Positions 6,736 to 58,412 of a stretch of DNA of 64,000 nucleotides are shown here, one piece after another. Positions within the stretch are counted from its first letter, which is position 1; the number at the start of each line of letters is the position of its first letter. The notes below the pieces were generated by a model. The model searched no databases, had not been told where the DNA came from, and worked only from the letters and a program-made list of their open reading frames with translations. The DNA is from Chloroflexota bacterium (GTDB taxonomy: Bacteria > Chloroflexota > UBA6077 > JAJPHF01). The position numbers and the translations under genes are program-made. The stretch is from the NCBI GenBank assembly GCA_035294645.1, contig DATGKN010000119.1, positions 8,972-72,971 on the forward strand, written 5' to 3'.

Positions 6736-7602
6736 ATGGCCAGCGAGGGCTATGCCAACCCGGCGGCGCTGGTGACCACCGAGTGGGTGGCCCAGCACCT
6801 CAACGACCCCAAGGTACGGTTGATCGAGGTCGATGTCGACACTACCGCCTACGACCAAGGGCATATCCCGGGCGCGGTCGGGGTGAACTGGAGCACCCAG
6901 CTCACCGACCAGATCCAGCGCGACATCCCCAAGAAGGAGGCGTGGGAGCGGCTGATGAGTCAGTGCGGCGTCACGCCCGACACGAAGATCGTCTTCTACG
7001 GGGACAACAACAACTGGTTTGCCGCCTACGCCTACTGGGTGGCCAAGATGTACGGCCACGAGGACGTCGTGCTGATGAACGGCGGCCGCAAGAAGTGGGA
7101 GCTGGAGGGCCGCCCGATGACCACCGAGCGCCCCAACATCCAGCCTACCCAGTACAAGGCCAAGGACCTAGACCCCAAGTACCGCGCCTACATGCGCGAC
7201 GTCCTGCCGTTCGTGGGCGCGCCGGCGGGCAAGGCGCTGGTGGATGTACGCTCGCCGGCCGAGTACAACGGCGAGATCATCGCCCCGCCGGGCCTGCCCG
7301 AGACGGCCCAGCGCTGCGGCCACATTCCGGGCGCGGTGAACATCCCCTGGGGCCTGGCGGTCAACGAGGACGGCACGTTCAAGTCGCCCGAGGAGCTGCG
7401 CCAGCTGTACGCCAGCAAGGGCGTCACGCCGGACAAGGAGGTCATCGCCTACTGCCGTATCGGCGAGCGCTCCTCGCACACCTGGTTCGTGCTCAAGGAA
7501 CTGCTGGGCTACCCGCACGTGCGCAACTACGACGGCTCGTGGACCGAGTGGGGCAGCGTGATCGGCGTGCCGATCGAGAACCCGGCCGCAAGCAAGGCTT
7601 AA
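6736..7602 (+). CDS. sseA: Thiosulfate/3-mercaptopyruvate sulfurtransferase (tandem rhodanese domains)
   Basis: Two rhodanese domains; active-site CRIGERSSH; typical SseA N-terminus. Confidence 0.88.
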
Positions 7603-11469: not shown

Positions 11470-11549
11470 GAATCGGTTGACGTTCGCGCCAACGCCCGCC
11501 TGGGGCCCGCCGGACTCTCTACCATAGGCTAGGGGAAGGAACGGTGAAC

Positions 11550-11999
11550 ATGCGGGGCCGTGCACAGGCAGCGGTCGAGTTCGCGCTGGTGCTGCCGCTG
11601 GTGTTGCTGGTGCTGGCCGGCACCATCGAGTTCGGCCGCGCGTTCTTCGCCTACGCCCAGCTGTTGCAAGCCGTGCAGGAGGGCGCGCGCTACGGCGCGC
11701 TGCTGGGCTACGCCACCAACGACGCAGCGATCACCGCGCGCGTGCAGCAGCTCGCGCCGGGCGGCAACGGCGATCCGGTGACGATCAGCGCCACGGTCAG
11801 CCCGACCGACTCCACGCCCGTGCCGGCCGCCAATCGCCAGCGGGGCAACGTGCTGCAAGTGGCGGCCACGCACCGGCATACGGTGCTGATTCCTTTGTTT
11901 CCGCTGAGCAGTCTGCGCCTGAGCGCCAGCGCGAGTATGGTCATCGAGACCAACCCCACCGCCTGGCTACCCGCACCGGCCGCCCCCCGGGAGGCCTGA
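11550..11999 (+). CDS. tadE: TadE/TadF-like pilus assembly (pseudopilin-like) protein
   Basis: N-terminal TadE motif AAVEFALVLPLVLLVLAGTIEFGRAF. GGAAGGAA RBS, ATG 8 nt downstream. Confidence 0.8.
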   Translation: MRGRAQAAVEFALVLPLVLLVLAGTIEFGRAFFAYAQLLQAVQEGARYGALLGYATNDAAITARVQQLAPGGNGDPVTISATVSPTDSTPVPAANRQRGNVLQVAATHRHTVLIPLFPLSSLRLSASASMVIETNPTAWLPAPAAPREA

Positions 12000-12002
12000 G
12001 CG

Positions 12003-12917
12003 ATGCGGGCGCGCGGGCAGGTCGTGGTGCTGGTCGCGGCGGCGCTACCGGTGCTGCTCGGCTTTCTCGGGCTCGCACTCGACGGGGGCTATTACTTCGC
12101 GGCCCGCGGCGCCGTGCAGTTCGCCGCCGACGCCGCCGCGCACGCCGCCGCGCAGGATGTGCAACTGGCGCAAGCCGGCAACGCGCTGTACTACGGCCGC
12201 GCCGCGACCGATGGCCAAACCGTAGGCCGCAACAACGTGGTGCCCCTGGAACTGACTGCTATCACCGTGGAGATCGCCTATAACGATTCGGCCACCGCGG
12301 CGCCCACCAGCAGTGGGTGGTACACGACCCTGCCGACTAGTAACACGCGCGCGGTGCGGGCGACGGTGCGCGCGCAATACCCCACGCTGTTCCTCAAGCT
12401 ACTGGGGATCCCGCTGGTCGGGCTCGAGCGCACGGCCGTGGTCAGCCTGGGCGGGAGCGGGCTGCTGCCGCTGGCGGTCTGTGTCGCCGAGATGCAGCAG
12501 TTCCCAGCGGGGCCCTGGACGATCTACCAGAACGGCAGCTCGCTGTGCCGGCCCGCGCCCGTGTTGCTCTGGGATGGCCTGGTCAACATCGACAACCAGC
12601 GCAACTGCGGCACCGGCAACAACAGCTACTACCAGTGGATCGTGCCGCGGCCCAGCGCGCCCGCGCCGCCCGGCACGACGGTCACCCTCGACACGCGCGG
12701 CTGCAGCGGTCGCATCGACAACTGGGTGACCCAGGCCGGGTACACCAGCGCCACCATCCTCGTGGTGGACACGAGCACGGTGCTGGCCCCGTTGTTCTTG
12801 CAAGCCACGGTGAAAGGGTGTCGCGACGTGCAGCTCGCCATCCCGCGCAACAACGTGATCACCGCGACCCCACTCGGCCCGGTCCGCGGCTGTAGCGCGC
12901 TGGTGCAGACCTACTGA
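12003..12917 (+). CDS. tadG: TadG-like pilus assembly protein with Cys-rich C-terminal domain
   Basis: N-terminal TadE/G-like segment (VVVLVAAALPVLLGFLGLALDGGYYFAARGAVQFAADAAAHAAA). Long C-terminal domain with several Cys. Confidence 0.7.
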   Translation: MRARGQVVVLVAAALPVLLGFLGLALDGGYYFAARGAVQFAADAAAHAAAQDVQLAQAGNALYYGRAATDGQTVGRNNVVPLELTAITVEIAYNDSATAAPTSSGWYTTLPTSNTRAVRATVRAQYPTLFLKLLGIPLVGLERTAVVSLGGSGLLPLAVCVAEMQQFPAGPWTIYQNGSSLCRPAPVLLWDGLVNIDNQRNCGTGNNSYYQWIVPRPSAPAPPGTTVTLDTRGCSGRIDNWVTQAGYTSATILVVDTSTVLAPLFLQATVKGCRDVQLAIPRNNVITATPLGPVRGCSALVQTY

Positions 12918-13432
12918 CCCGCGGGCAGCTCGTACAGCACGGTGATGTGCTCGCGATTCACCGCCGCATAGCTCACGCGCGCCACCTCCGCGTCGGTGGC
13001 CGCCTGGGCGACGCGCACGTCGGTCAGGGGCAAGAACTGACTCTGGAGGTTAGCGAGATACTGTTCCCACACCACGTGCTCCAACAGATGCAGCGCACCG
13101 CTGAGTAGGTAGGCACCGACGCCCAGGCCCACGCGCACCGGCTCCTTGGCCACCAGCAGGCCCGCGGGCGAGCGCGGCTGCGTCTCCGTAGTCGGCAGGA
13201 CGAACAGCACATCGTGCTTGCGCAGCAGCACGCGGCGGTGCGCGGGCGGCCAGACCTGGGCGCCCGTAGGCAGGATTTGGCCACCATGCAGCACGAGGTA
13301 GACGGCCGCGGTGTTGTTGAGCAGGTCGGTGAGCCGGCGGTAGCGCCCCAGCTCGACGAACCCGCGGACCCAGCCGTGCGCCGTGCAGGCGTTGATGCCA
13401 ACGACCTCACCCGTGCTGGCGGCCGGCTGCAT
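12911..13432 (-). CDS. Hypothetical protein (173 aa), last gene of the minus-strand tad operon
   Basis: GGGGAGAGG RBS 8 nt before the ATG, 20 nt after the cpaB stop. Soluble; no recognisable domain. The 3' end overlaps the convergent tadG. Confidence 0.5.
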   Translation of the reverse strand: MQPAASTGEVVGINACTAHGWVRGFVELGRYRRLTDLLNNTAAVYLVLHGGQILPTGAQVWPPAHRRVLLRKHDVLFVLPTTETQPRSPAGLLVAKEPVRVGLGVGAYLLSGALHLLEHVVWEQYLANLQSQFLPLTDVRVAQAATDAEVARVSYAAVNREHITVLYELPAGQ

Positions 13433-13451
13433 CGTTATCGCCTCTCCCCGC

Positions 13452-14210
13452 TCACGGCCCGGCGCCGGCCGGCTCCCGCAGGTACGCGCGGGCTAGCTCC
13501 TCGATAGTCACCGGCTCGGTGGGCACCGTGCCGCCCTGGTCGAAGCGCCGCAGGGCTAGGGCGATGCGCCCGCCCGTCTCCAGCAGGTACTCCAGCACCA
13601 CGGCCTGCTGGTAGTCCAGCAGCAGGGTCACGGTCGCCACGGGGGTGTTGCTGGCGCGTGGCCGGCCTTCGGGCTGCCACGGCCCCACGGCGAACACCGG
13701 CACGTCCTGGAAGATGGTGCGCGCCACCGGCTCGTTGTTGGCGCGGTTCCAGGTGGCGATCACATCCACCCGGTCGCCCGGCTGGACGGCGCCCGCCACG
13801 GTCAGCGTCTCGGAGGCTGGAATAGCCAGAGCGACTTTGTCGCGCGGGATGAGCGCCGAAGGACGCACCCCGGCCGCGCCGCCGACACTCGAGGCCAGCC
13901 GCTCGGGGGTATCCAGCACGATCTCGCCGGGGGCGAGCGCCACGGTAGTGGCCTTACCGATCAGCTGGGCCGGCTGGGGCACGGCGCCGGGCGGCACCAG
14001 CTCGCTGGGCACCTGGCGGGTCGTCAGTAGCTGGTCGATGTTGCTGCCAGTGAACAGCGTGCGCTCCGGAATCGCCTCGCGGGCTACCACCACGGTGGTG
14101 GTGGCCCGGCCGGCGCTCTGCACACTCGTGAGAGTGGCGTACACCGCGACGCCGACTAGCAAGGCGAGCGTGGCGCCCGCGGCGATCAGCAGCTTGCTCG
14201 TCGAGTCCAT
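13452..14210 (-). CDS. cpaB: Flp pilus assembly protein CpaB/RcpC
   Basis: N-terminal TM helix (LLIAAGATLALLVGVAVYATL) plus SAF/CpaB domain architecture. Confidence 0.8.
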   Translation of the reverse strand: MDSTSKLLIAAGATLALLVGVAVYATLTSVQSAGRATTTVVVAREAIPERTLFTGSNIDQLLTTRQVPSELVPPGAVPQPAQLIGKATTVALAPGEIVLDTPERLASSVGGAAGVRPSALIPRDKVALAIPASETLTVAGAVQPGDRVDVIATWNRANNEPVARTIFQDVPVFAVGPWQPEGRPRASNTPVATVTLLLDYQQAVVLEYLLETGGRIALALRRFDQGGTVPTEPVTIEELARAYLREPAGAGP

Positions 14211-14216
14211 GAGTCC

Positions 14217-15137
14217 TCAAGGCCGGCCCAGCAGGGCGATCGCGCTCAAGACCGCCGGGCCGATGATCACGATGAACAGCATCGGCATGATACAGAGCAC
14301 GATGGGGAACAGCAGCTTGATCGGCGCCTGCCGGGCCAGCTCCTCCGCGCGCACCCGGCGCGCCGTGCGCAGCGAGCGGGCCTGGGCGCGGAGCGCTCGC
14401 GCCAGCCCCGTGCCCAACTCCTCGGCCTGGATCACCGCGGCGGCGAACTCGCGCAGGTGCAGCGACTGCGTGCGGGTAGCCAAGGCTTGTAGCGCCTCGC
14501 GGCGCGACCGGCCGAGCTGCAAATCGGTCAAGTAGCGCCGCAGCTCCTCGACCAACGGCCCGCGGCCCCGCTCGCACAGGAAGGCGATCGCGCTGTCGAA
14601 ACTCAGCCCGGCCTCCAGGCTGAGGATCAGCACATCTACCGCGTCGACCAGCTCGCGCTCGATCGCCGCGCGGCGCGCGCGAACCATCCGGTCGAGCACG
14701 ACCACCGGCAGCGCGTAGCCCAGCGCTAGCCCCAACAGCATCCCCAGCGGCCCAGGCACCCGCGCCAGCAGGGCCAGCACACCGCCTAGCGTGCCCCCCA
14801 CGACCACAGCCAGCAAGCGCAGCCCCAGGAACTCCGCCACCGTCGTCTGCTCGGCCAGACCCGCGCGCGCCAGGGTAGCCCGCAGCTCGCGCACGCGCGC
14901 CGGCGACAGGCGCGCCGCCCAGCGCTGCCCCAAGTCCCCCAGCAGGTCACTGGCCGATGGGGAGCGGCCGGGCGCCGGTTCGGCCATGGCGCCGATCAGG
15001 CCAAAGCGCGTCAGCCGCTGGCGCATGACGCGCTGCTGGTGTAGCCGCAAGGCGGCCACCGTGAGCAGCAGCACGCCGAGCGCGCTGGCGAACGCCAGCC
15101 CCGCGGCGGTCACCGCCAGTCCGACGCCTCCCGTCAC
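14217..15137 (-). CDS. tadC: Type II secretion system F-family membrane protein TadC
   Basis: GspF/TadB-C family polytopic membrane protein. Confidence 0.8.
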   Translation of the reverse strand: MTGGVGLAVTAAGLAFASALGVLLLTVAALRLHQQRVMRQRLTRFGLIGAMAEPAPGRSPSASDLLGDLGQRWAARLSPARVRELRATLARAGLAEQTTVAEFLGLRLLAVVVGGTLGGVLALLARVPGPLGMLLGLALGYALPVVVLDRMVRARRAAIERELVDAVDVLILSLEAGLSFDSAIAFLCERGRGPLVEELRRYLTDLQLGRSRREALQALATRTQSLHLREFAAAVIQAEELGTGLARALRAQARSLRTARRVRAEELARQAPIKLLFPIVLCIMPMLFIVIIGPAVLSAIALLGRP

Positions 15138-15138
15138 C

Positions 15139-16035
15139 TCAAACCTCCACGCGGTTGAGGATGCGGATGCTCAGCAACCCCACGCCGAGCAGCACCAGCG
15201 CGAACAACAGCAGCACGCGGCCGGCCTCGGTGTTGAACAGCGGGCTGATGTAAGAGGGGCTGGCCATCAGCATCACGCCCACCACCACGAACGGCAGCGC
15301 GGCCAGCACCCAGCCGGAAAACCGCGCCTGCGCCGTAAGCGCGCGCAGCTCGGCCTGCAGCTGCAAGCGCTCGTGGATGGCGGCAGCCAGGTTCATCAGC
15401 AGCCCGGGCAAGTCCCCCCCCACCCGGTGCTGCACCGCCAGGATGGTGGCGAAGAAGTGGAACACCCCGCTGTGGGTACGCTCGGCCAGCGCGTCGAGCG
15501 CCGCCTGCAGCGGCTGGCCGAGCTCGATCGCCCGCAACACCTGGGCGAACTCCTGGGCGATCGGATCGGGGGCGTCCTCGACCACCCGCTGCAGCGCTTG
15601 CACCAGGCTGGCACCGCTCTCCATGGCCGCGGCCATGGTCTGCAGCGCCGGCGCGAGCTGGGCCTCTAGCAGCGCGCGGCGCTCGCGCTGGCGCTGGTAC
15701 TCCAACCAAACGATTACCGTGCCACAGGCCATGACCAGCGGCAGCACCAACGACCAGGCCAGCCCCAGCAGGCCGCCTAGCGCCAGCAGCACGATGGCCA
15801 AGCTCAGCGCAGCGCTACCCCGGTGCCGCGCCACCCACTGGCCGCCTCCGTGCAGCACCCCCCACAACGGGTGCGGTGACGCTGCAGCAGCAGCGGGAGC
15901 ATCGGCCAGCGTCAGGAACCGGCGCGCGCGCCGGCGCATGGCGCGCCGCTGTCGCCACCCCCGAGCGCTGGCGACTACTAGCAAGAAGGTCGCCGCGCTC
16001 GCTGCCATCGCCGCTACGAAGGGAAGCAGCTCCAT
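15139..16035 (-). CDS. tadB: Type II secretion system F-family membrane protein TadB
   Basis: GspF-like family; adjacent paralog of tadC. Confidence 0.8.
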   Translation of the reverse strand: MELLPFVAAMAASAATFLLVVASARGWRQRRAMRRRARRFLTLADAPAAAAASPHPLWGVLHGGGQWVARHRGSAALSLAIVLLALGGLLGLAWSLVLPLVMACGTVIVWLEYQRQRERRALLEAQLAPALQTMAAAMESGASLVQALQRVVEDAPDPIAQEFAQVLRAIELGQPLQAALDALAERTHSGVFHFFATILAVQHRVGGDLPGLLMNLAAAIHERLQLQAELRALTAQARFSGWVLAALPFVVVGVMLMASPSYISPLFNTEAGRVLLLFALVLLGVGLLSIRILNRVEV

Positions 16036-16041
16036 GGCACG

Positions 16042-17238
16042 TCACCCTCGCGCGTCGTTGCCGGCGCGCTCGACGTACTCGGCGAGCTTGTGCATGATCT
16101 GCGAGAACTCCGCCCTAGGGTTAGCGAGCACCACCGGCCGCCCCAGGTTCAGCGCGCTGGTCAGCTGGCGCCCGTAGCTGTTCAGGCGGAAATATTGGCC
16201 CGGGCCGAGTACTCGCTCGACCTCCTGCGGCGCGATGCCGACGTTCGAATTGGCCCGGTTGATGATCACCGCGATCTTACTGCGCGGGTAGCCGAGCGTC
16301 TCGGCGAGCTGCAAGAAGTGCTTGGCGTTGCGCAGGGCCCCTAGCTCCGGGTGCAGCACTAGGAAGATCACATCCGAACGGTCGAGCACCGCTAACAACT
16401 CTTCATCGTACGACACCTGGCAGTCGATGACGACGTAATCGAACGAGCGCGCCAGGACGGTGAGCACGCGCTCGATACAGGTAGCGTCGATCGTCTCGGC
16501 CAGCTCGGGGCGCTCGGGCCGGATCAGCAGCTCGACGCCGCTCTCGTGCTTGGCCAGCACCTGGTCGAGCAGGCTACTGTCCAGCTCCTCTAGATGCGGG
16601 AGCAGATCGACGATACTGCGGCCGAACGGCAGGTCCAGCAGGATGTTGGCATCGCCGAAGCGCAGGTCCGCATCCATGAGCACCACTCGCTTGCCGGTGC
16701 GCAGGCGCAGAGTGACCGCGAGGTTCACGGCGATAGTGGTTTTGCCCTGGCCGCCCTTGGGGCTGAACAACGCCACGCGCCGGGCGAGGCGTGGCGGGGG
16801 GGCGGGCACGACGGGCGCAGCGGGCGCGCCACGGGCGAGCAGCGCCTGCCGCTCCAGCGCCCGCTGGCGCACCGTGCGAATCGTGTCAGCCATCTGCGCG
16901 GCATCGGTGATCGGCTTGAGCAAGTAGCCCTGCGCCCCGGCCACCATCGCGCGCTGCATGTACTCGGTGCGCTCCTCCGAGCTGACCATGATCACCGAGC
17001 TGTCGGGGTTCTTGGAAGCGATCAGCCAGGTGGCGTGGATGCCGTCGATATCCGGCAGATGCACATCCATGAGGATCACATCGGGGTGCAGCTCGCTCGC
17101 GCGGCGCACCGCCTCTTGGCCGGTGGAGACGACGTCGACGACCTCCATGTCGGGCTGGGCAGCGAGCATGTCGCGGATCAGCCGCGCGGCCAGCGCGCTG
17201 TCGTCTACGACCAGGATGCGAATCTTCGGCGCTGCCAT
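16042..17238 (-). CDS. cpaE: CpaE/TadZ-like pilus localisation protein: N-terminal response-regulator receiver fused to ParA/MinD-like ATPase domain
   Basis: REC domain (RILVVDDSALAARLIRDML...ILMDVHLPDIDG...GYLLKP). Deviant Walker A (VALFSPKGGQGKTTIAVNLA). Confidence 0.85.
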   Translation of the reverse strand: MAAPKIRILVVDDSALAARLIRDMLAAQPDMEVVDVVSTGQEAVRRASELHPDVILMDVHLPDIDGIHATWLIASKNPDSSVIMVSSEERTEYMQRAMVAGAQGYLLKPITDAAQMADTIRTVRQRALERQALLARGAPAAPVVPAPPPRLARRVALFSPKGGQGKTTIAVNLAVTLRLRTGKRVVLMDADLRFGDANILLDLPFGRSIVDLLPHLEELDSSLLDQVLAKHESGVELLIRPERPELAETIDATCIERVLTVLARSFDYVVIDCQVSYDEELLAVLDRSDVIFLVLHPELGALRNAKHFLQLAETLGYPRSKIAVIINRANSNVGIAPQEVERVLGPGQYFRLNSYGRQLTSALNLGRPVVLANPRAEFSQIMHKLAEYVERAGNDARG

Positions 17239-17462: not shown

Positions 17463-18245
17463 TCAACGCTCGCGCGCGGGCAGCGGCAGCGGCTGGTCTT
17501 GGCGGTACGGCAGCCCCAGGCGCAGCGCGACCTCGGCGCGCGCCAGCTCGGCGCCCAGGTACGCCGCGTGGTCGAGCCGCGAGACGAGCCCGGCGGCCAG
17601 GATCGCGCGGTACAGCTCGGCGGCCGTGCGCCCCACGAAGCGATGGCCCGTCGGCCCGCTGAGGGCGGTCGCGTGGGCGACCACGATCTGCCCCTCGGCC
17701 ACCGCGACCAGGAAGTTGCCCAGCGGGTCGGGCTCCCAGCTCGCCCCGGCGGACGGCTGGGCCAGTGGGACGGCATCGAGTGGTGGCGGCGTCCACCCGG
17801 CGGGCACCAGCACCGGCGTGCCCGTCGCGGTCGGCGGGGGCAAGGCACGGATCGCCGCGGCCACGCGCGCCGGATCGGTGCAACCGCGCAGGTCGACCGC
17901 CCTGACCTGGCGGCGGAAGCGCTCGACAGCCGCGGGGGGCAGGCGCAGCTCGGTGCCTGGCACGGTGCCGTCCGCAGCCAGGCCGTGCGCGACCAGGGCC
18001 ACCAGGGCGCGGCCGCTGCCCGTGTAATCGACGCCGCAGACGACCAAGTAGCGCAGTGTGGGGTGGGCCAGCACGCTATCGACCAACAGGCCAATGCCCC
18101 ACAGCGAGTAGAGGTTGCCGCAGGCAGCGTACAACTCCCGCGGCACGCCCGCCAGGATGCGGTCCTGGGGCGTCCAGAGGGTCACGAGCCCCACAGGACT
18201 CGCAGGGTCGCCGAGAGTGACCTCGGGGGGATAGCTGCTAGCCAT
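17463..18245 (-). CDS. MtrA-like protein (homolog of tetrahydromethanopterin S-methyltransferase subunit A) with DUF4346-like C-terminal half
   Basis: Recalled alignment to archaeal MtrA: ...VTLGDPASPVGLVTLWTP / YVVGNPESCVGVVTLGSH and LRYLVVCGVDYTGSGRALVALVAHGLAADGTVPGTE...AVERFRRQVRAVDLRGCTDPARVAAAIRAL / [34 protein letters not shown]...AVERFRQQIEIVDLID. Identified from memory, not from a search. Confidence 0.6.
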   Translation of the reverse strand: MASSYPPEVTLGDPASPVGLVTLWTPQDRILAGVPRELYAACGNLYSLWGIGLLVDSVLAHPTLRYLVVCGVDYTGSGRALVALVAHGLAADGTVPGTELRLPPAAVERFRRQVRAVDLRGCTDPARVAAAIRALPPPTATGTPVLVPAGWTPPPLDAVPLAQPSAGASWEPDPLGNFLVAVAEGQIVVAHATALSGPTGHRFVGRTAAELYRAILAAGLVSRLDHAAYLGAELARAEVALRLGLPYRQDQPLPLPARER

Positions 18246-18471
18246 TGCGCGTCGGCAAGTCCCCTTTCTGTGGGCAGGATACGCGGCGCACAGACCCGCA
18301 ACAAGCGCTGCGGGGCCGACCGCGGGTATGGAATCCTCTATAGCGAGAAGCGCCCGCCAGGGGCGTGGGGCGTACTGGCGCGCGATTGCCCCGCTGCTGG
18401 CAACATGGTACGATCACACAGTTGCCCGAGGCGGCAGGCGCGCGCTTGGCGAGAGCAGCGAGAGAGCGGCT

Positions 18472-19233
18472 ATGGCGCGCATCATCGCCGTCGCGAACCA
18501 GAAAGGCGGCGTGGGCAAGACGACGACGACCGCGAACCTCGGCGCCGCCTTGACCATGCTCGACCACCGTGTGCTGTTGGTGGACATGGACCCACAGGGC
18601 AATCTCACCGCCGCCTTCGGCCTGGAGAAGCAGGCGGAGTGCACGGTGGCCGATGCTCTGCTGGACCGCCGCGTGCCGCTGCCCATCGTGCCGGTGAACC
18701 CCGCAACCCATCCACGGCTCGACCTGGTGCCCTCGGCGATCCCCCTGGCGATGGCCGAGGCCGCGTTGAGCAACAAGCTCGGCCGCGAGCTCCGCCTACG
18801 CGACCAACTAGTCCCGGTCCAGGACGCGTACGACTACATCCTGATCGATACGCCGCCCGCCTTGGGCCTGCTGACCATCAACGCGCTAGTGGCGGCCACC
18901 GGGGTGATCGTACCCACCGAGGCCCGCTTCTTCTCCCTCCAAGGCCTCCAGATGCTCCAAGAGAGCGTCGACGAGATCCTATACCTCAACCCTCGGCTCA
19001 CCCTGCTTGGTATTCTGTTAAGCAAGCTGGACCGGCGCTTGCGCGAGGAGCGGGCGGTAGCCGAGTACCTGCGCGAGCGGTGGGGGGCGCTGGTGTTCCG
19101 CACGGAGATCAGCGCCAACAGCAAGATTCTGGAGGCGGGGTCGGCGGGCACCTCGGTTTTCCGTTATGCTGGAGCCGAGCGCGCCGCCGAGTTGTATTTG
19201 GCTCTGGCCCGAGAGGTGGTGGAGCGTGGCTGA
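18472..19233 (+). CDS. parA: ParA/Soj-family deviant Walker-A ATPase (orphan, immediately upstream of ftsZ)
   Basis: [27 protein letters not shown]...[20 protein letters not shown]. Confidence 0.85.
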
Positions 19234-20542
19234 GACTCCCGGCTTCAACCCTGACCGCCTCGCCGACACCAAGCGGCCCGAGCCGGTGGTGCCGCGGATT
19301 CTCGATGCCCCGGTGGCCTCGCAGGCCCGCGGGTTCACCGAGATCAAGATCGTGGGGGTGGGCGGCGGCGGCGGCAATGCCGTCAACCGTATGATCGAGG
19401 CCGACGTGCGCGGCGTCGAGTTCATCGCCGTCAACACCGATAGCCAGGCCCTGAGCCAATCGCTCGCGCTCCAGCGCCTCTGCATCGGGGCGCGTACCAC
19501 GCGCGGGCTCGGCGCGGGCGGCGACCCGCAGCAGGGCGAGCGGGCCGCCCTGGCCAGTGAGGCCGAGCTGCGCGAGCTGCTCGCCGACACGGACATGGTG
19601 TTCATCACCGCCGGCCTCGGCGGCGGTACGGGCACCGGTGCCGCCCCGGTGATCGCCGGCATCGCCCGTGAGCAGGGCGCGCTCACCGTGGCGGTAGTGA
19701 CCCTGCCGTTCAGCTTCGAGGGGGCGCGCCGCCGCCGGGTGGCCGACGCCGGCCTGCGCGCCCTGCGCGAGCGCGTGGACGCTATCATCGTGATCCCCAA
19801 CGACCGCCTGCTGCGGCTCAGCGACGGCCACCTGCCGATGGTCGAGGCGTTCCGGCTGGCCGACGACGTGCTGCGGCAGGGCGTGCAGGGCATCGCCGAC
19901 CTGATCACCTATACGGGGCTGATCAACCTCGACTTCGCCGATGTCAAGACGGTGATGGCCAACGCCGGCACGGCGCTGATGGCCGTCGGTGAGGCGCGGG
20001 GCGAGGCGCGGGCGCTCCAGGCGGCCCACGCGGCGATCAATAGCCCGCTGCTCGATGCCAGCATCGCGGGCGCGCGCGGCGTGCTGATCAACATCACCGG
20101 CGGCCCCGACCTGACCCTCACCGAGGTCAGCGAGGCGGCCAACGCCATCTACGAGGTCGTGGACCCCGGCGCCAACATCCTCATCGGCGCGGTGGTGCAC
20201 CCGCGCCCGCAGGCGGAGGTGCGGCTGACGCTGATCGCCACGGGGCTGCCCGACAGCGACAGCGGCGCCGGGCGGGAGGCGCGCGAGCGGCGCTGGCCTG
20301 GCGAGCGGGGCGGCTGGGAACGGCCTGCGCCACTCGACGAGGCCCGCGCGCACGACGACGCGTCCGACTGGGAGCGCGAGCCGCCGGAGCGCGAGGGGCG
20401 CCGCCCGCCGCCCGACGCCCCGCCGTGGGACTACCTCGTCTCGCGGCGGCACGATGACCCACCGCCAGCGCCGCCGCGCCGGCCGGAGCCCGCCGATCTC
20501 GACCTGCCGCCGTTCCTGCGCCGCCGCCGGCAGCGGCCGTAG
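19226..20542 (+). CDS. ftsZ: Cell division GTPase FtsZ (start uncertain)
   Basis: [17 protein letters not shown]...[18 protein letters not shown]. Conserved C-terminal peptide [10 protein letters not shown]. Candidate GTG start overlaps the parA stop (RBS GAGAGGTGG). Alternative ATG at 19166. Confidence 0.9.
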
Positions 20543-47891: not shown

Positions 47892-49586
<1,695 letters not shown>

Positions 49587-49590
<4 letters not shown>

Positions 49591-50879
49591 CCGCCCTGTG
49601 CATCCGCGGCGGCCGGGTCATCGACCCCGCGAGCGGCCTCGACGGCCTCGCCGACGTGCGCCTGCACGACGGCCGGGTGGTCGAGGTCGGCCCGGCGCTC
49701 GCCGCGGCGGCCGACGAGGTGGTGCTCGACGCCACGGGCTGCATCGTGGCCCCGGGCTTCATCGACCTGCAGTGCCACCTCGGCGACGCCGACCACGACG
49801 ACGCCGAGACGCTCGCCACGCTGGGGGCGGCGGCCGCGGCCGGCGGCTTCACGACGCTCTGCTGCCTGCGCGAGGGCGACCCCTGCGTCGACGACGCGGC
49901 GGCGGTGGTGGCGCTGCGCGAGCGGGCGGCCGCCGAGACCCGCGTGCGCGTGCGGCCCCTGGGGGCGGTGACCCGCGGACGCCAGGGCGCGGAACTCGCC
50001 GAGCTGGGCGCCATGGCCGAGGCCGGCGCGGTGGCGTTCACCGACGGCGGGCTGTCGGTGCGCAGCGCGCGGGTGCTGCGCAACGCGCTCAGCTACAGTG
50101 TGCTCACGGGGCGGCCGGTGGTCGAGCAGCCGTGCGACCCCGACCTCGCCCAGGGCGGCCTGGCGCACGAGGGGGCGGTGGCCACACACCTGGGCCTGCC
50201 GGGCATCCCCGCCGCCGCCGAGGAGTTCGCCGTGGCGCGGGCGCTGGCGCTCGCGCGGGCGACCGGCGGGCGGTTGCACCTCGGCCCGCTGAGCACGGCG
50301 GCGGCCGTGGAGCAGGTGCGCGCCGCGCGCGCCGCCGGGCTGGCGGTCACCGCCGCCGTGACCGCGCACCACCTGCTGCTCGACGAGACGGCGCTGGCCA
50401 GCGGGCCCGAGGGCTGGCCCTACACCACCAGCACCAAGCTCCTGCCACCGCTGCGGACCGCCGCCGATCGCGCGGCGCTGTGCGCGGGCGTCGCCGATGG
50501 CACGCTGGTGGTGGTGAGCGACCACTGGCCGCGCCGCGCGATCGAGAAGGACTGCGAGTACGTCTACGCCGCGCCGGGCGCGAGTGCTCTGGAGAGCGTG
50601 CTGGGCGTGCTGCTGGAGCTGGTGGCGCGGGGCGAGCTGGCGCTGGACGCCGCGCTGCGCGCCCTGACCGTCGGGCCCGCGGCCGCGTTCGGCTTGGAGG
50701 GCGGGCGCCTGGCGCCGGGCGCGCCGGCCGACTGCGTGGTGTTCGACCCCGAGCCACGCTGGCAGGTCGAGCCGGCGCGCTGGCGCTCGCGCGGGCGCAG
50801 CACGCCGCTGGCCGGCCACTGGCTGCGCGGCCGCGTGCGGGCCACCATCGCCGGCGGCGAGATCGTCTATCGTGTGTAG
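49587..50879 (+). CDS. pyrC: Dihydroorotase
   Basis: MTALCIRGGRVIDPASG...APGFIDLQCH...; ATGA overlap with the pyrB stop. Confidence 0.9.
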
Positions 50880-50889
50880 CAGGGCTGAG

Positions 50890-52053
50890 ATGGTAGTGCA
50901 TGTAGAATCCCCCCCGAGCGCCCCGGTCCCGCGGCTCGCCGTGCCGGGCGCGCTGGTGCTGGAAGACGGTGCCGCATACGTGGGCACGCTGTTCGGCGCC
51001 GGGCGGGAGACGGCCGCCGAGGTCGTCTTCAACACTGGCATGACGGGGTACCAGGAGATCTGCACCGACCCGTCGTATCGCGGCCAGATGGTGGTGCTCA
51101 CGCACCCGCAGATCGGCAACTACGGTGTCGATCTGGCGGTGGCGGAGTCGACGCGGCCGTGGGTGGCGGGGCTGATCGTGCGCGAGCTGGCCCTGGAGCC
51201 GCACCACTGGCGCGCGAGCGAGCCGCTGGACGCCTACCTGGCGCGCCACGGCGTCACGGGGCTGGAGGGGATCGACACCCGCGCGCTGACGCGGCGGCTG
51301 CGGCGGCGCGGGGCGCTGCGCGGGGTGCTGGCGCCGATCGCGCGGCCAGAGCTGTCCACCGGCGAGCACGCCGCGCTGCTCCAGCGCGCCCGCCAGCTGC
51401 CGGCGCTGTCGGAGCGCGACGTGGTGAGCGAGGTGGTGGGCGCCGCGAGCGCGGCCGTCACGCCCGCCGGCACGGGGCCGCGCGTGGTGGTGCTCGACTG
51501 CGGCGCCAAGCACAACATCGTGCGCTCGCTGCAACGGCGCGGCGCGGCGGTGACCACGGTGGGCGCCGACGCCACGCTGGAGACGATCCTCGCCGCGCGG
51601 CCGGCGGGGGTGGTGCTGGCCAACGGGCCGGGCGATCCGGCGGCGCTGCCGGGCGTCGTGGGGCTGGTCCGCGACTTGTTGCGCACCGACCTGCCCATCT
51701 TTGGCATCTGCCTGGGCCATCAGTTGCTCGCGCTGGCGGTGGGGGCCACCACCAGCCGCCTGCCGTTCGGCCACCACGGCAGCAACCACCCGGTGCAGGA
51801 CGTGCGCACGGGCGCGGTACACATCACCGCGCAGAATCATGAGTTCCAGGTGGACCGTGACTCGCTGCCGGCGGCGTCGGGCTTCTACGTGAGCCACATC
51901 AACTTGAACGACGGCTCGGTCGAGGGCCTGGCCCACCGCGAGCGGCCGGTGTTCTCCGTGCAGTTTCACCCGGAGGGCTGCCCCGGGCCACAGGACAACC
52001 AGTACCTGTTCGATGAGTTCTTCGCGCTGCTGGCGGCGCGCGTAGGCGAGTGA
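50890..52053 (+). CDS. carA: Carbamoyl-phosphate synthase small (glutaminase) subunit
   Basis: GICLGHQLL catalytic Cys motif; CarA N-terminal domain. Alternative GTG start at 50872. Confidence 0.92.
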   Translation: MVVHVESPPSAPVPRLAVPGALVLEDGAAYVGTLFGAGRETAAEVVFNTGMTGYQEICTDPSYRGQMVVLTHPQIGNYGVDLAVAESTRPWVAGLIVRELALEPHHWRASEPLDAYLARHGVTGLEGIDTRALTRRLRRRGALRGVLAPIARPELSTGEHAALLQRARQLPALSERDVVSEVVGAASAAVTPAGTGPRVVVLDCGAKHNIVRSLQRRGAAVTTVGADATLETILAARPAGVVLANGPGDPAALPGVVGLVRDLLRTDLPIFGICLGHQLLALAVGATTSRLPFGHHGSNHPVQDVRTGAVHITAQNHEFQVDRDSLPAASGFYVSHINLNDGSVEGLAHRERPVFSVQFHPEGCPGPQDNQYLFDEFFALLAARVGE

Positions 52054-56511: not shown

Positions 56512-56886
56512 ATGCACATCGGCGGCCGGCGCTTCCCGGCAGGGCTGCTGCTGGCGGTGGTCGGGCCGGCCTGCGCGCTGATCCTGCTGGCCACAGCGCA
56601 GCGGGCGGTGGAGGGCTACCAGCTGGCGCGCCAGGTGGAGGCGATGCGCCGCGAGGTGGCCGAGCTGCGCGAGCAGAACGTGGAGCTGCAGCGGCGCATC
56701 GCGCGCTACCGCAGCGACGCCTATATCGAGCGAGTGGCGCGCGAGGAGCTGAACCTCGTGCGGCCGGGCGATGTGCCGGTGATCATCGTGGCGCCCACGC
56801 CCGCCCCGACCGCCGCGCGCCCCACTCCTACCCCGGATATCCCCGTGCCCCGCCAGTGGCTGCGCCACTTCCTCGACGAGCCATGA
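56512..56886 (+). CDS. ftsB: Septum formation initiator FtsB/DivIC-like protein
   Basis: N-terminal TM followed by coiled coil (QVEAMRREVAELREQNVELQRRIARYRSDAYIERVAREEL). Alternative GTG start at 56503. Confidence 0.75.
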   Translation: MHIGGRRFPAGLLLAVVGPACALILLATAQRAVEGYQLARQVEAMRREVAELREQNVELQRRIARYRSDAYIERVAREELNLVRPGDVPVIIVAPTPAPTAARPTPTPDIPVPRQWLRHFLDEP

Positions 56887-58412
56887 GCGGGGCCGCGTCG
56901 GACCCTACCGCTCCCACGACCGCGCGGGTCGATCGCGCGCTGCGGGCCAGCCTGGCGGCCCTGCGCGCCGCGGGGCTGGGCAGCGGGGCGCGGGTGCTGG
57001 TCGGCCTCTCGGGCGGGCAGGACTCGCTGGCGCTCACGCATGCGCTCTGGCGGCTGCGCGCGGAGCACGGGTGGGCGCTGCATCCAGTGTACGTCGACCA
57101 CGGCCTGCGCGCGGCGGGCGCCGCGGAGAGCGCCCATCTGGCCGCGCTGTGCGCCGACTGGGGCCTGCCACTGGTCACGCTGCACCTCGACGTGCCGGCC
57201 TACCGCCGCCAGCATCGCCTGAACGTGCAGGCCGCGGCGCGCTACGCCCGCTACCAGGCGCTGGCGCGGCTGGCGGCGCAGCTCGGCGCCGACGCGGTGG
57301 CCGTCGGCCACACCGCCGACGACGTGGCGGAGACGCTGCTGCTGCACCTGCTGCGCGGCGCGGGCCTCGACGGCCTGAGCGCCATGCCGTTGGTGGCCAC
57401 GCTGCCGCTGGCGGCGCTCGGCCCGCCGCTGGACGCGCCCGCGCCGCCGCCCAGCGCGCTGCGTGTGGTGCGGCCGCTGCTGGCGGTCGCCCGCGCCGAC
57501 ACGCTGGCCTACTGCGCCGAGCAGGGGCTCGCGCCGCTGGTCGAGGCCGGGCGTGCCTACACGCGCAACCGCGTGCGCGACGAGGTACTCCCCTGTCTGG
57601 AGCGCGTGCAGCCCGGGGCGCGCCAGGCGCTGATGCGGGCGGCGCGGGCGCTGGCCGAGGAGCGCACGGTGGTGGAGCGCGCCGTGGAGATGGAGTGGCG
57701 CCAGCGCGCCCGGCTGGCGGACGCGGCGGTGACGCTCGCCCTCGCCGGCTGGGCGGAGCTGCCCGCGGCGCTGCAACGGCGGCTGATTCGCCGGGCGGTG
57801 GTGGCGCTGCGGGGCACCGCCGCCGATCTCAGCCAGGCGGTGCTCGACGCGGCGCTGCGAGTCGCTGCGGGGGAATCGGGGCGCGGGATCGACCTGCCGC
57901 ACGGGCTGCGGCTGGAGCGCGAGGGCCCCACGCTGCGCTTGGTCGCTCGTGCCCCGGCGCGCGCGGCGGAGGCGGCGAGCTGGCCGCTGCCCGTGCCGGG
58001 CGGCCTGGTGCTGCCCGGCTGGGGCTGCCTGCGGGCGGAGTACGCGCCACCCCCGCCGCCGGACCGCTGGCGCGCGGTCGCGCCATTCGAGGGCTGGCTG
58101 GACGCCGCGGCCGTGCGCTTGCCGCTGCGCGTGCGGTTCCGTCGGCCGGGCGACCGCTTCCAGCCGCTGGGCATGGCGCACGCCAAGCGGCTACAAGACT
58201 TCCTGGTGGACAGCCGCGTGCCACGCCACCAGCGCGCGCGTTTACCCCTGGTAGTGGCCGATAATGGTATTGTGTGGGTAGTCGGGCAGCGCATCGCGCA
58301 CTGGGCGCGCCTGCGGCCCGAGACGACGACCGCGCTGCACTTGTGGGCGGAGCCCGGGATGGCAAGCAGCGCTTGTCCTCTCCCCGTGCAGCGATTAGAG
58401 GTAGCGCCGTGA
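56883..58412 (+). CDS. tilS: tRNA(Ile)-lysidine synthetase
   Basis: PP-loop (VLVGLSGGQDSLAL). ATGA overlap with the ftsB stop. Confidence 0.88.
   Translation: MSGAASDPTAPTTARVDRALRASLAALRAAGLGSGARVLVGLSGGQDSLALTHALWRLRAEHGWALHPVYVDHGLRAAGAAESAHLAALCADWGLPLVTLHLDVPAYRRQHRLNVQAAARYARYQALARLAAQLGADAVAVGHTADDVAETLLLHLLRGAGLDGLSAMPLVATLPLAALGPPLDAPAPPPSALRVVRPLLAVARADTLAYCAEQGLAPLVEAGRAYTRNRVRDEVLPCLERVQPGARQALMRAARALAEERTVVERAVEMEWRQRARLADAAVTLALAGWAELPAALQRRLIRRAVVALRGTAADLSQAVLDAALRVAAGESGRGIDLPHGLRLEREGPTLRLVARAPARAAEAASWPLPVPGGLVLPGWGCLRAEYAPPPPPDRWRAVAPFEGWLDAAAVRLPLRVRFRRPGDRFQPLGMAHAKRLQDFLVDSRVPRHQRARLPLVVADNGIVWVVGQRIAHWARLRPETTTALHLWAEPGMASSACPLPVQRLEVAP

Follow-up and report, generated by a model that had tools for sequence, protein, structure and literature searches.

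A conserved parA–ftsZ gene pair in uncultured Chloroflexota suggests a possible, so far undescribed mode of Z-ring placement

A ParA-like ATPase with a direct inhibitory action on FtsZ is known from Caulobacter crescentus: MipZ, which depends on ParB and whose gene is not part of an ftsZ operon. MinD is a membrane-binding ATPase whose partners are MinC and MinE. The PomXYZ system of Myxococcus xanthus relies on PomZ, a ParA ATPase bound to the nucleoid, to bring a cargo that promotes division to mid-nucleoid; the activator peptides of ParB, MinE, ParG, PomX and McdB are known as modular, short, positively charged N-terminal extensions (PMC7993993). ParA/MinD genes usually adjoin the genes of their cargo (PMC10241942). 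It is a long-standing question how the Z ring is placed in bacteria that have neither Min nor nucleoid-occlusion proteins, a condition that seems to apply to many Actinomycetota and Chloroflexota. Here we analysed a 64-kb stretch of DNA from a Chloroflexota bacterium (contig DATGKN010000119.1, assembly GCA_035294645.1; the whole stretch is hereafter the window), in which a parA gene lies directly upstream of ftsZ. The conservation of this gene pair and of an extra N-terminal tail on its FtsZ would suggest a mode of Z-ring placement not yet described. We propose, with a probability of about one half, that parA and ftsZ form a conserved two-gene operon and that the ATPase is an offshoot of Soj/ParA dedicated to division, which positions the Z ring through a peptide of FtsZ.

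Conservation of the parA–ftsZ pair

The span 18472-20542, singled out in an initial annotation of the window, runs exactly from the start of parA to the stop of ftsZ. The parA gene (18472..19233, + strand; ATG at 18472, TGA at 19231-19233) encodes a ParA/Soj-type deviant Walker-A ATPase of 253 amino acids with Pfam matches to AAA_31 (1e-51) and CbiA, and its start Met is common to all relatives. The ftsZ gene (19226..20542, + strand) encodes 438 amino acids plus the stop codon. Its product belongs to the FtsZ family, scoring 407 bits against TIGR00065 (cut-off 295) and matching PF00091 (Tubulin) and PF12327 (FtsZ_C). The open frame of ftsZ is longer than the gene (19166-20542). We place the functional start at the GTG at 19226 because a Shine-Dalgarno-like run, GAGAGGTGG, lies at 19211..19219 (+ strand) within the last parA codons (..REVVERG), because the public gene calls also take this start (438 aa), and because the part of the protein encoded from 19226 onward is strongly conserved among homologues. 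The 8-nt overlap GTGGCTGA (19226..19233, + strand) thereby joins the GTG start of ftsZ to the parA stop TGA, confirming the initial annotation, which had described a ParA/Soj-type ATPase gene directly upstream of ftsZ with its stop overlapping the ftsZ start. The two genes are probably translationally coupled. The predicted RNA fold of the junction showed nothing special (z = +1.18).

The linkage noted in the window is kept in its relatives. Among the ParA clusters whose contigs were read (the window's own protein, P0116, P0109, P0004, P0113 and P0120), ftsZ lies directly downstream of parA in six of six, with the five relatives ranging from 88% down to 72% identity. Likewise, parA lies directly upstream of ftsZ in all four FtsZ clusters read (56-61% identity). 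Altogether, 10 of 10 related protein clusters keep the pair in at least six different flanking contexts, mostly with the same overlap, and for eight further ParA/FtsZ pairs the longest contigs are of equal size in both match lists. The hosts are a large group of uncultured soil Chloroflexota. A search of genome contigs with the ParA alignment (universal Walker A and IDTPP patterns), of which a 600-row sample consisted mostly of ordinary Soj genes, gave one further Chloroflexota locus and three loci of a Gaiellales type, described below. The former, L013, is the chromosome of a metagenome-assembled genome (MAG) and represents a deeper relative, with ParA 59% and FtsZ 43% identical to those of the window; its parA and ftsZ are paired likewise and also overlap by 8 nt. 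The ftsZ GTG lies 8 nt ahead of the parA stop in the window and in L005, L013, L093, L094 and L178; L095 has an 11-nt overlap and L096 one of 14 nt. GAGGTG is found at the same place within the last parA codons in L005, L093, L094 and L096. Within the paired loci, the conservation of ParA equals or exceeds that of the essential FtsZ (88 vs 83%, 73 vs 60-70% and 59 vs 43%).

The genes upstream of the pair vary among the loci, comprising Tad and MtrA-like genes, four small Gly/Tyr-rich genes, a TP_methylase-TatD-polyprenyl synthase series with two small divergent genes, or rbfA-nrnA-truB-ribF. Because the flanking genes differ, only the pair itself is kept: no neighbour other than ftsZ is conserved beside parA across the loci read.

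As a control, we used a metagenome search with the FtsZ alignment, which returned essentially random FtsZ loci, 43-61% identical to the query. Among the 58 of these with at least 1.3 kb of upstream sequence, an FtsA-like gene precedes ftsZ in 45 (one confirmed with Pfam), and parA precedes it in none within the fetched upstream sequence. In Dehalococcoidia, ftsA-ftsZ adjoin mraZ-mraW, and a dcw cluster is referred to in Chloroflexus (PMC10608941). From the control loci and this published survey, we conclude that the parA–ftsZ arrangement is a derived feature of a particular clade; the departure from the standard dcw order, which had been claimed for the window, is real. The conservation data refute a chance adjacency or an annotation artefact, for which we see a negligible probability. 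The general abundance of ParA genes (60,116 ParA-like cluster representatives at E ≤ 0.001 in a search of representative proteins) is all that speaks for such a coincidence, and it is outweighed by the 10 of 10 related clusters that keep the pair across different flanks and by the 0 of 58 control ftsZ loci with parA. Since the linkage is conserved in relatives, a dedicated division-related ParA–FtsZ operon is the best reading of the locus.

The ATPase and its family

The ParA/MinD superfamily is marked by a KGGxGK[ST] P-loop with a signature lysine, by aspartates in Walker A' and by one in Walker B; the corresponding K11, G12, K16, T17, D38, D40 and D126 are all present in the ATPase and invariant in its family. 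The best matches by phmmer against the Protein Data Bank (PDB) were 8RAY (2.5e-51), whose sequence is almost that of a ParA encoded in a Myxococcus genome (L052), the Soj of Thermus (9e-42) and the Soj of Helicobacter; MinD followed at about 1e-11. An AlphaFold model of the ATPase (predicted local distance difference test, pLDDT, of 86) was superimposed by Foldseek on 9A6N, 8RAY, 1WCV and 6IUB, the Soj proteins of B. subtilis, Thermus and Helicobacter among them, with template-modelling (TM) scores of 0.85-0.91 at 40-42% identity. McdA appeared from rank 18 and MinD from rank 33. The ATPase is Soj-type by sequence and fold.

These comparisons do not bear out the label 'MipZ/PomZ-like', given in the initial annotation, as a statement of family membership. 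The Pfam MipZ match (PF09140) is limited to residues 4-44, that is, to the P-loop; MipZ is absent from the PDB sequence matches at E ≤ 1e-5, and no MipZ structure is found in the Foldseek top 50. Membership in the MipZ family was rejected on these grounds. Membership in the MinD family was rejected as well: the ATPase scored 59.7 bits against TIGR01968 (cut-off 212.9), it ends level with Soj and has neither a C-terminal extension nor a membrane helix, so that the C-terminal amphipathic helix of MinD is absent, and no minC or minE is found in the window. PldP/Rv1708-type actinobacterial ParA proteins were also rejected, since the context of PldP is parA-scpA-scpB, no ScpA is found in the window, and the ATPase falls in a separate clade of the neighbour-joining tree described below. 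No NCBIfam equivalog cut-off was reached by the ATPase.

The ATPase could be the chromosome-partition Soj/ParA of its lineage, with parB and parS elsewhere, placed beside ftsZ for the co-expression of segregation and division and having no action on FtsZ. Besides the best PDB sequence and fold matches, which are chromosomal ParA/Soj proteins, this explanation has in its favour that the catalytic residues and both DNA-binding positions of Soj are kept. The positions R189 and R218, through which B. subtilis Soj binds DNA non-specifically, correspond to an invariant Arg and an invariant Lys of the ATPase family, respectively, when the numbering is applied to the 253-aa Metabacillus Soj as a reference. 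Lys at position 218 is also found in 15 of 64 ParB-linked Soj proteins, and the ATPase may bind DNA.

Several findings argue against a partition Soj. The family of the ATPase comprises more than 120 clusters at at least 71% identity. Among 1.84 billion representative proteins, the best full-length representative scored 311 bits at 62% identity, and all others had at most 50% identity and at most 214 bits. In a neighbour-joining tree, which includes 64 ParB-linked Soj proteins and 12 actinobacterial ScpA-linked ParAs and carries no bootstrap values, the ftsZ-linked Chloroflexota ParAs form one separate, long-branched clade. Their identity to the Soj of the one Chloroflexia Soj-ParB locus sampled (L090, 42%) is no greater than that to Soj from other phyla (39-49%). 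The family also departs from the 64 ParB-linked Soj proteins at sites that hardly vary among the latter (Q149E, T184S, L192E, R215A/T and P223G), and the score against the NCBIfam ParA partition model NF041546 is 101.9 bits, with a cut-off of 180. No parB gene was found in the flanks of any related locus read. In the window, Pfam detected no ParB, FtsA, FtsQ, MinCDE or ScpA among about 50 open reading frames (ORFs), five ParB sequences, one of FtsA and one of ScpA had no tblastn match, and the parS consensus had no match with up to 3 mismatches, in agreement with the initial annotation, which had seen no parB, parS, ftsA or ftsQ there. The same tblastn comparison recovered one FtsZ and one full ParA, the only other match being the P-loop of a TadZ-like gene. 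A partition Soj also leaves the N-terminal FtsZ peptide that co-occurs with parA (see below) unexplained. We therefore regard this explanation as unlikely. Judged by its sequence, the ATPase belongs to a tight family of its own and is not an ordinary Soj.

An N-terminal peptide on parA-linked FtsZ proteins

The FtsZ of the window carries a conserved extension of about 39-40 residues ahead of the first core strand (GFNPDRL...), and its residues 1-39 (19226..19342, + strand), recognised from the alignment and the AlphaFold model, are the proposed ParA-contact peptide. F7, P9, R11, R17, V22, I25, A34, G36, F37 and T38 are invariant in an alignment of 55 homologues with overall identity down to 59%. 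The strict pattern F[ND]P[DSEN]R is found in 86 of the 120 closest FtsZ clusters; most of the rest have a one-residue variant, or their called start lies downstream of the motif. The family consensus can be written as MPNGRQRGGFNPDR(M/L)ADLTRPVSVVPQIVEAP..ARGFTE. With a pLDDT of 46-57, residues 1-39 are predicted to be disordered, as against a pLDDT above 90 for the FtsZ core. The peptide is absent from 79 control FtsZ loci, whose N-termini are short and unrelated. Across the fetched loci, which total about 1.2 Mb, the peptide motifs are confined to FtsZ proteins encoded right after parA and to one small ORF that also directly follows a parA. A peptide that is conserved and, according to the model, disordered bears the signature of a docking motif, and residues 1-39 share with the described activator peptides that they are short, conserved, unstructured (by the low pLDDT) and located at the extreme N terminus.

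A second group of loci has a comparable arrangement. In three Actinomycetota MAGs (L015-L017, labelled Thermoleophilia, Gaiellaceae and uncultured Actinomycetes), parA overlaps ftsZ, and the same overlap is present in the cultured Gaiella occulta (GCA_003351045.1; L097, QQZY01000002.1 5043-7464). The loci of this Gaiellales type are located at 6752-8194 in L015 and at 6743-8110 in L017. The Gaiellales ParA is 46-49% identical to that of the window and falls in a different clade of the neighbour-joining tree; its Walker A reads KGGVAKT, and it retains the R..R motif as in Soj. Its FtsZ partner has an N-terminal extension of about 150 residues, in which a basic start peptide leads into a linker of about 120 residues that is variable, acidic and rich in Pro. 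In Gaiellales and Thermoleophilia the extension begins with MARKRASMREGPLAELFRATEAAQR. The invariant basic peptide that opens the Gaiellales FtsZ is MARKRASMREGPLAELFR, and the start MARKRASMREGPLA(E/D)LFRATEAAQR is essentially unchanged in 120 of the 120 closest homologues, a few of which are called from an internal Met. With 6 basic residues in 25, these peptides look like the activator peptides of ParB, MinE, ParG, PomX and McdB, as far as the analogy goes. They are unrelated in sequence to the Chloroflexota peptide, and the likeness between the two groups probably reflects convergent evolution or a very old divergence. Neither the conserved FtsZ peptide nor the Gaiellales arrangement had been recognised in the initial annotation.

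Two observations on actinobacterial loci stand apart. In another Actinomycetota MAG (L020, 6771-7139), a PldP-type parA is separated from scpA by a 122-aa ORF for which Pfam gave no match. This ORF begins with MSRRVSLPAADDLFRKTGEE and has a [DE]LFR[KA]T core in common with the Gaiellales FtsZ N terminus. Its product may be a stand-alone ParA partner. In the Thermoleophilia MAG L016 (6743-8812), ftsZ is split over two frames around 7370-7540, by an assembly frameshift or as a pseudogene.

Because ftsZ is the sole conserved neighbour of parA and a private docking peptide was gained in two independent lineages, we propose that the ATPase interacts with FtsZ through this peptide. The two genes would be co-transcribed. 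The ATPase would form ATP-sandwich dimers that bind the nucleoid non-specifically, as may be expected because the catalytic residues and both DNA-binding positions are kept. The dimers would contact FtsZ directly via the disordered N-terminal peptide specific to the parA-linked FtsZs. With the peptide repeated along it, an FtsZ polymer would serve ParA as a multivalent cargo and would also trigger hydrolysis of its ATP. The FtsZ cargo would then be moved to and held at mid-nucleoid, as happens to a PomXYZ cluster or to a plasmid bound by ParB, except that FtsZ would contain its own adaptor and activator. A bolder form of this proposal, which we hold only tentatively, is that a dedicated ParA has in FtsZ both its cargo and its ATPase activator: the peptide would attach to ParA-ATP dimers on the nucleoid and inactivate them, so that FtsZ polymers could position themselves at mid-nucleoid without an adaptor of the kind of ParB, PomX/Y, MinC/E or McdB. 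Uncultured Chloroflexota and Gaiellales would then represent at least two origins of a minimal two-protein division-site system.

The linkage and the peptide are equally compatible with a negative regulator of the MipZ or nucleoid-occlusion type, in which a DNA-bound ParA dimer would block FtsZ polymerisation over the nucleoid or near a landmark, and the ring would form where ParA is scarce. Such inhibition has a precedent in MipZ, as the initial annotation had suggested. However, the ATPase is no relative of MipZ by any of the comparisons given above, and MipZ needs a ParB landmark, of which none is linked here. The sign of the regulation is not readable from sequence data, with which both modes agree; we favour a PomZ-like positive positioning and consider inhibition unlikely.

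Several points weigh against a positioning of the Z ring by this ATPase through the FtsZ peptide. In L001 and L002, parA and ftsZ are separated by a 50-nt gap, and coupling is thus not universal. Promoters and terminators are not reliably readable at 72% GC. The closest proteins to the ATPase by sequence and fold are true chromosome-partition Soj/ParA proteins, and the putative contact between ParA and FtsZ is deduced purely from their co-occurrence. Moreover, the window peptide has a net charge of about zero and lacks the R-x-R of the larger Chloroflexota subclade (GRQRGG), R11 and R17 being its only invariant Arg residues. Because it has no net positive charge, its likeness to the known activator peptides appears weaker than that of the Gaiellales peptides. 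Finally, N-terminal FtsZ peptides with ParA-independent roles are described in heterocyst-forming cyanobacteria, where a conserved one is reported to affect polymerisation (PMC6175996).

The last two points also fit another explanation, in which the genes are co-expressed but the FtsZ peptide is independent of ParA, tuning polymerisation or binding another partner, and ParA has a different cargo. Against it stand the confinement of the motifs to products encoded right after parA and the pairing of two unrelated ParA clades with an extended FtsZ each; no gene for an alternative cargo is conserved beside the pair. We consider it distinctly unlikely.

The bolder form of the proposal, if true, would explain how the division site is chosen by some Terrabacteria that show no linked Min or Noc genes. 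If FtsZ indeed carries its own ParA-activating peptide, the pair would be the most compact ParA positioning system known and a new example of the modularity of activator peptides. The conserved pair, the private ParA family and the private FtsZ peptide together constitute a concrete, testable candidate mechanism, and experiments are possible because Gaiella occulta is in culture. The initial annotation had suggested an undescribed division-site selection module in this lineage. A dedicated ParA–FtsZ operon remains the best reading, and we found neither a described parA-ftsZ operon nor a ParA-linked FtsZ N-terminal peptide in the literature searched, which leaves most subscription journals outside it; the restriction to one lineage does not hold, as Gaiellales (Actinomycetota) have the arrangement, too.

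Surroundings of the pair and comparison with known systems

The window has a G+C content of about 72%, and its closest protein matches are named Chloroflexi or Chloroflexota bacterium. Upstream of parA, the opposite strand carries an MtrA/DUF4346-like gene, a REC-CpaE/TadZ-type ATPase gene and Tad pilus genes; downstream and convergent with ftsZ are a phosphofructokinase gene and then a SIR2 gene. Housekeeping genes identified with Pfam in the window include carAB, a pyrB-like gene, glnA, der and ftsH. The parA–ftsZ locus is chromosomal and is not a dcw cluster.

The promoter of the pair is presumably located in the 226-nt intergenic region between the divergent MtrA/DUF4346-like gene and parA (18246..18471, defined by the ORF coordinates). 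A weak TTGCCC-N18-TACGAT, recognised by eye only, at about 18386-18414 is a candidate promoter. A scan with the sigma-70 consensus found no promoter match in this region, and a terminator scan gave a sole terminator-like match, inside parA and at chance level; at the G+C content of the window, the former says little and the latter is uninformative. At the other end of the pair, FtsZ has a canonical C-terminal peptide (20495..20539, + strand), in which D424, D426, P428, F430, R432 and R433 are nearly invariant and DxDxPxFLRR is conserved in the 55-sequence alignment. In other bacteria this peptide is the docking site for FtsA, SepF, ZipA or MinC. Given its presence, the FtsZ of the pair probably keeps normal membrane-anchor interactions.

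The Tad/Flp pilus cluster (11481-17238) comprises TadE, Tad, RcpC/CpaB and two T2SSF TadB/C genes. A response-regulator-CpaE/TadZ fusion (16042-17238, − strand) is a second ATPase of the ParA/MinD superfamily, encoded 1.2 kb from parA and distinct from it. The gene divergent from parA (17463-18245, − strand) combines an MtrA-like domain with a DUF4346 pterin-binding domain, which is unusual for a non-methanogen; its product scored far under the cut-offs of the models for tetrahydromethanopterin methyltransferase subunit A. Two long open frames with high G+C at third codon positions and without a Pfam match are located at 56721-58190 (− strand) and 49524-51119 (− strand), with 489 and 531 aa, respectively. 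The latter overlaps carA on the opposite strand and may be spurious.

Small genes flank parA in some of the related loci. Two small divergent genes are found just upstream of parA in many Chloroflexota relatives, as in L001 (6700-7920, − strand) and also in L002, L093-L096 and L180. The product of the first, about 145 aa long, has two predicted transmembrane segments and an FQREIDDIIRLAE helix, and the second encodes a Zn-ribbon-transmembrane-SH3 protein. They were ruled out as part of a core module, having no homologue in the window. In the closest relatives (L005, 5125-7252, − strand; 88% ParA identity), four tandem small genes replace the MtrA-like and Tad genes upstream of parA. Their products are extremely rich in Gly, Tyr and Pro, and those of 141 and 201 aa have signal-peptide-like N-termini.

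Compared with known systems, the ATPase most resembles the chromosomal Soj/ParA proteins (type Ib; T. thermophilus 1WCV/2BEK, B. subtilis 9A6N, and 8RAY), with which it shares the size, the lack of an N-terminal DNA-binding domain, the deviant Walker A with the signature lysine, and the fold. Unlike them, in the loci read it is never beside parB and always beside ftsZ. The PldP/Rv1708-type orphan ParAs of actinobacteria are likewise ParA-like ATPases without an adjacent parB, for which effects on division have been reported. MipZ, the analogy drawn in the initial annotation, is an ATPase of the ParA superfamily acting directly on FtsZ, and MinD is likewise a ParA/MinD-superfamily ATPase that serves division-site selection. 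No PomX- or PomY-like gene is linked to the pair in the loci read. The closest likeness in proposed principle is to PomZ, a nucleoid-bound ParA ATPase with a division-promoting cargo that is brought to mid-nucleoid. In the PomXYZ system the activator works via a short N-terminal peptide (PMC7993993), whereas here the candidate peptide sits on FtsZ itself.

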